Sequence record: NC_042128.1
Length of the DNA: 64,000 bases
Origin: Escherichia phage RCS47
Strand: one strand, 5' to 3'
Part shown: one piece after another, positions 26,138 to 27,182 of the stretch
Position numbering within the stretch: position 1 is the stretch's first letter
How the letters are laid out: every line of letters starts with the position of its first letter
The notes under the pieces: model-generated
The model's input: only the letters and a program-made list of their open reading frames with translations
Told to the model about the DNA's origin: nothing
Database searches by the model: none
Program-made: the position numbers and the translations under genes

Positions 26138-26374
26138 ATGCAGAACAATCCGAACAAATGTCGAACGCTATGGGTGCGGTTATATATTTATGCCGTCCTC
26201 TGTTTGATTGTGTCACTGGTTCTGTATGTTTGGCTTTTGCCAAATATGATCTCATCTAACAGCACAATACTTGTATTGTTGGGAGTCCTTCTCGCGCTCA
26301 TTTACCCAGCTTTCGCAGTAGTCTTTTTTCGTGAAAAAACCAGGAAATTAATTAATGAAAAAAACGTTGATTAG
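26138..26374 (+). CDS. small integral membrane protein (two TM segments)
   Basis: 78 aa, two hydrophobic helices; overlaps start of the SPFH gene. Confidence 0.45.
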   Translation: MQNNPNKCRTLWVRLYIYAVLCLIVSLVLYVWLLPNMISSNSTILVLLGVLLALIYPAFAVVFFREKTRKLINEKNVD

Positions 26375-27182
26375 TGCAGCGATTATTTTGGGTTCTTTAT
26401 GTCTGACCGGATGCGATCGGGTAGAGCCAGGTAACGTAGGGATCAAAGTAAATAAGCTGGGGGATGATAAAGGTATCGGTGAAGTAGTTGGCGTTGGTCG
26501 CTACTGGACAGGCTTGAATACTGAAGTTTATATCTTCCCGACCTTTAAGCAAATGAAGACATACGATGAGCCGTTCAGCTTCCAGATGAGCGACGGAACA
26601 ACCATTGGTTACCACATCGGCGTAGCCTACAAGGTTGATCCAGCAAAAGTCACAACGGTATTTCAGACCTATCGCAAAGGTGTAGATGATATTACTGATA
26701 CCGATCTACGCCAGAAGGTTGCAGATGCTCTGAACCGGTTAGCCAGCAAAATGACAACCGACAAATTTATCGACGGTGGCAAATCCGAATTGCTTGATGC
26801 AGCCCTTAAAGACATTCAGGAAGAAATGACGCCAATCGGCATTCAGGTGATGAGCCTCTCTTATGTAGGTAAGCCAGAATACCCGCCAACAGTTATTGAC
26901 AGTATTAACGCCAAAGTCACGGCAAACCAAAAAACCCTGCAACGCGAGCAAGAGGTCAAACAACGTGAAGCAGAGGCCAACATGCTGCGCGCGGAAGCTG
27001 CCGGACAGGCTGATGCTATTCGCACAAAAGCCCAGGCCGAAGCTGATGCCATTCGTTTACGTGGTGAAGCTCTGCGCCAGAACCCCGGTGTTATGGAGTT
27101 GGAAGCGATCAACAAATGGAACGGTACATTACCGCAGTATATGACCAGTAATACCGCTGTTCCGTTTGTTCCGGTGAAATAA
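26355..27182 (+). CDS. SPFH/band-7 family lipoprotein
   Basis: lipobox LTGC; SPFH core then Ala/Glu-rich coiled coil; 275 aa. Confidence 0.7.
   Translation: MKKTLISAAIILGSLCLTGCDRVEPGNVGIKVNKLGDDKGIGEVVGVGRYWTGLNTEVYIFPTFKQMKTYDEPFSFQMSDGTTIGYHIGVAYKVDPAKVTTVFQTYRKGVDDITDTDLRQKVADALNRLASKMTTDKFIDGGKSELLDAALKDIQEEMTPIGIQVMSLSYVGKPEYPPTVIDSINAKVTANQKTLQREQEVKQREAEANMLRAEAAGQADAIRTKAQAEADAIRLRGEALRQNPGVMELEAINKWNGTLPQYMTSNTAVPFVPVK

Follow-up and report, generated by a model that had tools for sequence, protein, structure and literature searches.

SPFH proteins are widespread membrane scaffolds whose roles in bacteria are mostly unclear, and phage copies of them are common. In Escherichia coli, HflK and HflC form a cage around the membrane protease FtsH, and it is well established that HflKC governs the FtsH-dependent degradation of lambda CII (PMC4936722). 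A second arrangement is that of the SPFH-NfeD operons (E. coli QmcA-YbbJ, PDB 8z5g; archaeal stomatin-NfeD), where the SPFH gene is co-transcribed with a small gene encoding several transmembrane (TM) helices. Viral couples include N4 gp19/gp20 with their N4-like counterparts (Shigella virus Moo19 gp30/gp31) and MbpV/MbpS of Staphylococcus Kayvirus. Here we analyse a couple of this kind in Escherichia phage RCS47 (NC_042128.1), in which a gene for a 78-residue inner-membrane hairpin protein (26138-26374) overlaps the start of a gene for a 275-residue SPFH/Band 7 lipoprotein (26355-27182). The window, that is, the whole stretch of 64,000 nucleotides that was analysed, is that of a P1-like phage-plasmid; all coordinates refer to it, and all features located below lie on its plus strand. 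The protein is already annotated as SPFH, and the module is common, real and well conserved; its function is uncharacterised in the literature searched. In our analysis, the SPFH gene is nearly always accompanied by a two-helix partner of its own, which is often unannotated and whose conserved core is predicted to face the periplasm. We tentatively read the pair as an HflK/C-like inner-membrane cage with its partner, which would fence membrane patches during lytic growth by acting on a conserved host feature, a reading that we hold to be somewhat more probably wrong than right.

The phage lipoprotein shares with HflK and HflC the succession of SPFH domain, long helix and C-terminal segment, as well as an SPFH part that faces the periplasm from the inner membrane (predicted for the phage protein), and these two proteins are its top matches in sequence and in structure. 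It differs from them in being lipid-anchored, where HflK and HflC have an N-terminal TM helix, in being the product of a single SPFH gene rather than one half of a K/C heteropair, and in an identity of 16-19%; it is moreover phage-encoded, paired with the 78-residue hairpin, and linked to FtsH by analogy alone. The SPFH-NfeD operons offer the same association of an SPFH gene with a small multi-TM gene, and QmcA is a structural match of the phage SPFH model (Foldseek rank 36); however, the phage partner lacks an NfeD/OB-fold domain, and QmcA faces the cytoplasm whereas the phage protein is predicted to be a periplasmic lipoprotein. The N4-like pairs likewise consist of a partner-family gene that overlaps the SPFH gene behind it, with an SPFH protein 64% identical to that of RCS47 and a partner that aligns with the conserved loop motif, but they belong to virulent phages, lie in the early/middle region and carry Tyr, not Asp, at position +2. 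In Kayvirus the small membrane gene likewise abuts the SPFH gene (1-nt overlap; SPFH identity 26%), whereas the phage infects a Gram-positive host, MbpV combines a single TM helix with a long charged tail and does not match our hidden Markov model (HMM) of the partner, and the two genes are located in the holA-lysK-tgl lysis region (PMC7150955).

The SPFH lipoprotein and its hairpin partner

An earlier note, made from the letters of this DNA, had read the longer open reading frame (ORF) as an SPFH lipoprotein with a coiled-coil tail and had proposed an HMM search, whose outcome agrees with it. The 275-residue product scores 107.6 bits with Pfam PF01145 (Band_7; E 9.7e-31), for which the cut-off is 23.6, from residue 22 to 208 and over profile positions 2-176 of 176, and phrog_200 ‘lipoprotein’ with an E value of 2e-113. 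The SPFH/Band 7 domain thus delimited by the Pfam envelope (26418-26978) coincides with strands and helices of the AlphaFold2 (AF2) model, which has a mean predicted local distance difference test (pLDDT) score of 71 and comprises an alpha/beta SPFH domain, a single long helix at residues 178-242 and a disordered tail. The helix (26886-27080), which stands for the coiled-coil tail of the earlier note and corresponds to the coiled-coil wall in cages of SPFH proteins, is rich in Ala, Glu, Gln and Arg and is covered by a phmmer alignment to HflK residues 180-306; the low-confidence C-terminal tail after it carries a conserved motif, KWNGxLP. Over its full length and with a probability of 1.0, the model was matched by Foldseek to HflK/HflC first (7vhq, 7wi3 and 9cz2) and then to prohibitin, erlin, stomatin, flotillin and QmcA, while a phmmer search of PDB sequences returned HflK and a prohibitin coiled coil as the only matches. 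The Band_7 profile, the fold and the Foldseek matches therefore make the protein a bona fide SPFH member of the cage-forming type that is not HflK or HflC itself: a true HflK was rejected at 23.3 bits against an equivalog cut-off of 159.4 (NCBIfam TIGR01933), and a true HflC at 24.7 bits against 134.4 (TIGR01932).

By inspection, the N-terminus (MKKTLISAAIILGSLCLTGC followed by DR) has the form of a signal peptide with a lipobox (26355-26417), as the earlier note had it: MKKTLISAAIILGSLC-LTGC, then DR, conforms to the pattern [LVI][ASTVI][GAS]C of a predicted lipoprotein, with the codon of Cys20 at 26412-26414 and that of Asp at +2 at 26415-26417. In E. coli, Asp at +2 after the lipidated Cys is the signal for retention in the inner membrane by avoidance of Lol. 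Having the order C-D-R, the SPFH lipoprotein is predicted to stay in the inner membrane. Of the 120 homologues that are closest in the database, 99 show a recognisable lipobox, and Asp stands at +2 in every one of those 99.

The 78-residue product has two hydrophobic segments (about residues 15-34 and 44-64) joined by an uncharged four-residue loop, and its termini are basic. Its model is a hairpin of two helices (H5-38 / H43-77), and among the PHROG families it matches phrog_1130 ‘membrane protein’ (E 6e-16), in keeping with the two-helix membrane protein announced by the earlier note. Two TM helices with both ends in the cytoplasm (N-in/C-in) are predicted. The conserved core of the partner spans residues 26-59, that is, the end of the first TM helix, the predicted periplasmic loop LLPxMISSxST and the second TM helix, while the predicted cytoplasmic tails are variable and truncated in some variants. 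From this distribution of conserved residues, the two proteins would be expected to touch at the periplasmic/membrane face. The possibility raised by the earlier note that the partner is an NfeD protein has to be dropped: neither NfeD nor any other curated domain was found in Pfam at E values up to 0.1, and a protein of only 78 residues that ends 14 residues after the second TM helix leaves no room for an OB-fold domain.

A word-index homology search with the small protein reached relatives of at least 66% identity only, none carrying a name, and distant partners were located through synteny and a custom HMM. The small gene is frequently absent from public annotation: RefSeq/PGAP and PLSDB rows at this locus give ‘SPFH domain-containing protein’ alone (the PLSDB gene table being incomplete), and the upstream small TM ORF is unannotated in the records of an Stx2 (Shiga toxin 2) phage, a Burkholderia phage and SaPL.

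Both ORFs reported by the earlier note are present in the ORF listing, the small one overlapping the start of the SPFH frame by 20 nt (26355-26374). A Shine-Dalgarno-like sequence, GGAGTGAGAGG, was found by inspection immediately 5' of the ATG of the small gene (26127-26137), and an AGGA inside the small gene (26342-26345) precedes the start of the SPFH gene; the latter, together with the frame overlap, makes translational coupling likely. Against a 75%-identical variant from a Salmonella P1-like element, the ratio of nonsynonymous to synonymous substitution rates (dN/dS) of the small ORF is 0.20 in frame, compared with 1.5 and 1.6 in control frames, and near-identical plasmids differ from it by 3-5 changes only. 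For the SPFH gene dN/dS is 0.008-0.018. Both genes are real and under purifying selection. In vB_EcoM-813R1, a 1-nt difference cuts the small ORF to 70 residues.

The two genes have not always travelled together. Between P1-like and P2-like/lambdoid copies the mature SPFH protein retains 93% amino acid identity, whereas the partner and the signal peptide retain only about 42%, and the DNA homology to P2-like and Stx copies begins at the lipobox (26408/26409); partner and signal peptide therefore form one travelling unit and the mature SPFH protein another. Plasmid AP026456 presents the reverse pattern, with a small ORF 98.7% identical and an SPFH gene 90.8% identical with 70 synonymous changes. 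Such conservation of the SPFH protein across unrelated phages argues for interaction with an invariant part of the host, such as a membrane lipid or a conserved inner-membrane machine, and against an arms-race target.

The SPFH protein might also mimic HflK/C and thereby influence a membrane protease of the host, FtsH or another, which would alter the stability of phage or host proteins, for example CII/CIII/Xis-type regulators or membrane proteins. HflK and HflC are indeed its nearest relatives in sequence and structure, the periplasmic orientation is that of HflK/C, the turnover of lambda CII offers a precedent, and temperate Stx2 and Pseudomonas phages carry the pair downstream of the repressor gene on the same strand. 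Yet the scores far below the HflK/HflC equivalog cut-offs, a structural-alignment identity of only 16-19%, a lipid anchor with no TM helix and the frequency of the pair in virulent phages, which have no lysogeny decision to make, render this explanation unlikely. It also overlaps the reading of the pair as a cage with its partner, in which FtsH access is one possible target.

Pairing across viruses and exchange with tciABC

Searched by tblastn, the SPFH protein has matches in 793 of 50,697 phage records, many of them of virulent phages, including N4-like, rV5-like, Bruynoghevirus, Kayvirus, phiCbK, jumbo and crAss-like phages as well as haloarchaeal viruses. Among 163 usable phage loci, which come from only a few groups (P1-, P2-, lambda-, N4- and rV5-like phages and Pseudomonas phages), an ORF of the partner family stands immediately 5' of the SPFH gene in 156 (67 distinct partner sequences), as judged by an HMM built from seven seeds that are themselves among the 163 loci. 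The overlaps measure 1-20 nt, most often 4 nt (103 loci) or 20 nt (41 loci). This layout, with phrog_1130 and phrog_200 adjacent on the same strand and the partner upstream, gives substance to the idea of the earlier note that the two proteins act together.

The surroundings of the pair vary from phage to phage. In the P2-like P88 it is embedded by ATGA overlaps in an early operon; in Stx2 phages and a Burkholderia phage an unannotated gene of the partner family directly precedes the SPFH gene, and such a gene also directly precedes it in Pseudomonas D14B and in the N4-like Moo19 (gp30/gp31, annotated as N4 gp19/gp20-like), while in the rV5-like Ro1 it stands one gene further upstream. The seven loci without a partner match carry the most divergent SPFH genes, and in most of them another kind of small TM protein is encoded next to the SPFH gene (Kayvirus mbpV, phiCbK, SaPL, HJTV-2) or, in Panisse, two genes upstream of it. 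Analogous small TM genes thus adjoin the SPFH gene in Kayvirus (mbpV/mbpS; PMC7150955), phiCbK and haloarchaeal HJTV-2.

The Kayvirus genes are the main support for regarding the pair as a lysis-timing device, in which the small protein would be a holin-like or antiholin-like pore former restrained or organised by an SPFH cage: mbpV/mbpS follows holA-lysK, and the authors of that study liken MbpV to holins (PMC7150955). The RCS47 partner itself shows traits of class II holins, being small with two TM helices and a charged C-terminal tail. That tail, however, is less conserved than the rest of the protein and cut short in some variants, the pair sits in early/replication regions of P1-, P2-, N4- and rV5-like phages, distant from lysis genes, and early expression of a holin would be lethal, so that we consider a role in lysis timing very unlikely. 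A spanin pair of the Rz/Rz1 type was likewise rejected, as here it is the large coiled-coil protein that is the lipoprotein, with Asp at +2, the membrane protein is a hairpin that hardly extends into the periplasm, and the locus is not a lysis cassette.

In RCS47 the pair lies between tRNA genes, as the earlier note had observed, tRNA-Thr (25134-25209) on one side and a tRNA with a CAT anticodon (27210-27285) on the other. The 2.7 kb around it are 99.1% identical to Escherichia phage vB_EcoM-813R1, and the parts of these 2.7 kb that are shared with P1 are about 98% identical to it. In a blastn comparison with P1 (NC_005856), P1 matches at 24000-25302, at 25476-26112 and again from 27201, so that the segment 26113-27200 stands exactly in place of the 716 bp that hold tciA-tciB-tciC in the P1 annotation, between flanks of about 98% identity; the left breakpoint falls directly after a T-run and the right one 9 nt ahead of the tRNA. 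The earlier note was therefore right to place the pair at the position of the P1 tci genes.

The replacement is non-orthologous. TciA has a TerB domain, TciB is DUF3927 and TciC belongs to no family; the pair matches neither TerB nor DUF3927, BLASTP gave no alignment between the 78-residue protein and TciB, and nothing else aligns, which led us to reject the orthology with Tci proteins that the earlier note had named as a point that would count against it. What the two cassettes share is the slot, strand and operon, their nature as non-essential accessory cargo and the inclusion of small hydrophobic proteins; they differ in having no sequence relationship. They are about equally frequent: PLSDB contains 189 plasmids with a nearly full-length SPFH cassette and 191 with tciABC in full. 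Of 5,426 complete E. coli genomes, 460 (8.5%) carry the SPFH gene, at 201 plasmid and 308 chromosomal places, the latter taken to be prophage copies. P1-like phage-plasmids have eight highly variable regions, of which the slot is one (PMC9603915), and a CRISPR interference screen of P1 found tciA-C non-essential (PMC10695390). One study of P1-like plasmids described tciABC as ‘lost’ in about half of them without mention of SPFH; this ‘loss’ is a replacement by the SPFH pair, in similar numbers here. Isogenic P1-like phage-plasmids bearing either tciABC or the SPFH pair would offer a simple genetic system for the function of a phage SPFH cage.

Expression and a possible role in lytic growth

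The C1 operator Oban(ab), which overlaps the Pban promoters, is conserved base for base with the annotated P1 site at 24373-24400, and Pban is the only promoter recognised upstream of the pair. A scan of 24000-27700 for the sigma-70 consensus found none, against about 3.8 expected by chance; a private promoter of the pair was rejected on this ground, which is weak evidence because the sigma-70 consensus alone was scanned. Directly upstream of the cassette lies a structured, RNA-like element common to P1 (25984-26112), recognised through Rfam and folding: its segment 25984-26104 matches STnc100 with 38.3 bits (E 1e-6), below the gathering score of 47, 25976-26120 folds at -53.3 kcal/mol (z = -3.2), and the element closes with a stem followed by TTTTTT (26107-26112), in the manner of a terminator. 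Given this terminator-like element, the pair probably relies on read-through from Pban, as ban must. In P1, transcripts of tciA/B/C are present 10 and 20 min into P1vir infection (bioRxiv 10.64898/2025.12.28.696737). By its position, the pair is probably expressed in the lytic phase, within the C1-repressed ban operon.

The tciABC slot invites another explanation, namely that the complex blocks the passage of phage DNA or of colicins across the inner membrane, in the lysogen or in early lytic growth, as a functional analogue of the TerB-type tciABC, superinfection exclusion being also one of the functions that the earlier note had proposed. The pair does occupy a highly variable region, and ter operons have been linked to phage inhibition and colicin resistance (PMC9603915); in Moo19 it adjoins a gene annotated as superinfection exclusion, and the partner evolves far faster than the SPFH protein (about 42% against 93% identity). 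Exclusion of the T4 Imm type works at the periplasmic face of the inner membrane, which is the predicted site of the pair. Against this, PADLOC-DB 2.0 (2023) holds no match for the SPFH protein and a single chance-level one for the partner (E 0.023), beyond which no PADLOC model of a known defence system was matched, and a T4 Imm-like protein was rejected since the Imm family is absent from the Pfam matches at E values up to 0.1. The very strong purifying selection on the SPFH protein (dN/dS of about 0.01) and its near identity across unrelated phage types would be unusual for an exclusion protein engaged in an arms race. The pair moreover lies behind the C1-repressed Pban and has no consensus promoter to itself, strictly virulent phages commonly carry homologous pairs, and the family spans viruses of Gram-negative and Gram-positive bacteria and of archaea whose entry routes are unrelated. 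We regard exclusion as fairly unlikely.

Repression by C1 bears also on the idea of a surface or virulence lipoprotein acting by lysogenic conversion, released in vesicles and sensed by the immune system, which would be modelled on PM0222 of Pasteurella multocida. PM0222 is an HflK/C-like SPFH-superfamily protein of a prophage island; it is secreted in outer-membrane vesicles and activates Toll-like receptor 1/2 (TLR1/2) signalling, and bacteria from which it has been deleted are less virulent in mice (PMC9872710). The frequency of the family in Stx phages of Shiga toxin-producing E. coli and in clinical E. coli plasmids would suit such a role. The likeness to PM0222 is nevertheless one of description and not of sequence comparison, Asp at +2 argues for retention in the inner membrane, the operon is repressed by C1, and the family extends to virulent phages of environmental bacteria and to archaeal viruses, all of which makes this explanation most improbable.

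We return to the pair as a periplasm-facing membrane cage with a dedicated partner. The two genes would be transcribed as part of the early ban operon, under repression by C1, and their translation would be coupled. They would give rise to a hairpin that spans the inner membrane twice, so that its ends lie in the cytoplasm and its conserved short loop in the periplasm, and to an SPFH protein that is exported, lipidated at Cys20 and held in the inner membrane by Asp at +2. By means of its long helix, the SPFH protein would assemble on the periplasmic face into a ring or cage like that of HflK/C. The hairpin would be either the missing transmembrane fence or the enclosed client, in contact with the cage through its loop and second TM helix, and the cage would fence off patches of the inner membrane in the infected cell. 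Its target may be a conserved host feature, either the integrity and energisation of the membrane or the access that host quality control (e.g., FtsH) has to it; by acting on such a feature, the pair would support lytic development rather than lysogenic conversion or arms-race exclusion. The membrane-stress function mentioned in the earlier note is plausible. As a plain membrane stabiliser, if that is what it is, the module would provide a useful annotation without being surprising.

Several points weigh against this reading. Studies of Lol sorting indicate that Arg at +3 may weaken retention by Asp at +2, and more distant SPFH homologues have Tyr, Glu, Ser, Asn or Gly at +2, so that retention in the inner membrane may not be general. 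The SPFH model is of moderate quality (pLDDT 71), with the last 30 residues below 50 and a shallow alignment of sequences at least 73% identical, and the oligomerisation, partner contact, lipidation and inner-membrane location of the SPFH protein are all deduced from sequence. The narrow origin of the 163 loci and the seeding of the partner HMM from among them have been given above. The terminator-like structure stands 25 nt 5' of the small gene and demands read-through or an unrecognised promoter, and a role in defence or exclusion would also fit, since the cassette that was replaced is of the TerB type and its region is known to vary (PMC9603915). In the literature searched we found no experiment on the phage SPFH family and no function for it, only annotation-level mentions, the discussion of the Kayvirus proteins (PMC7150955) and the paper on PM0222 (PMC9872710); according to a 2026 phage paper, it is still unclear why a phage genome should contain an SPFH domain (PMC13239085).

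A bolder version, which we find distinctly unlikely, would make of the pair a ‘split HflK’, a pan-viral caging device of bacterial and archaeal, temperate and virulent viruses. The hairpin would be the fence or a caged pore and the lipoprotein a periplasmic dome, serving the early capture of a conserved host inner-membrane machine (FtsH or another) or the restraint of a holin-like pore. If true, this would amount to a new general strategy of host-membrane takeover.

Neighbouring features

Upstream of the Pban region, the ORF in the position of dmt (DNA methyltransferase; 21095-24382) encodes 1,095 residues, a length equal to that of its counterpart in phage Ro157c2YLVW and well above the 754 residues of P1 Dmt; its end overlaps Pban and the C1 operator. 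The ‘dicF-like region’ of P1 is conserved at 24497-24598, with a strong terminator hairpin (24563-24582) followed by a T-run two bases longer than that of P1. Since this terminator lies between Pban and the tRNA genes, everything downstream, the pair and ban included, needs read-through. The genes for tRNA-Asn and tRNA-Thr follow at 25056-25209 (ARAGORN, Rfam). On the other side of the cassette, the tRNA with the CAT anticodon is tRNA-Met according to ARAGORN, whereas the P1 annotation gives tRNA-Ile2 (ileX-like, lysidine-modified); it is followed by the helicase gene ban (27565-28935) and then dbn (28935-29933).

Between tRNA-Thr and the pair, some 900 nt (25210-26112) common to P1 are without a convincing ORF and consist of about four related units with long hairpins, the first of which holds a sequence resembling a tRNA T-arm, GGGTTCGAATCCC. 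The plp and upl ORFs of P1 are possibly spurious, because they are annotated on the minus strand over this hairpin-unit region. Fragments of the units match unannotated DNA in Klebsiella, Salmonella, Cronobacter and Stx phages, and the array may be one of decayed tRNA-like elements or small RNAs. Compared with P1, whose alignment skips from 25302 to 25476, RCS47 has one additional repeat unit of about 173 nt (25303-25475), and phage Ro157c2YLVW has an additional tRNA-Tyr between tRNA-Asn and tRNA-Thr; the tRNA/repeat region is therefore itself variable.

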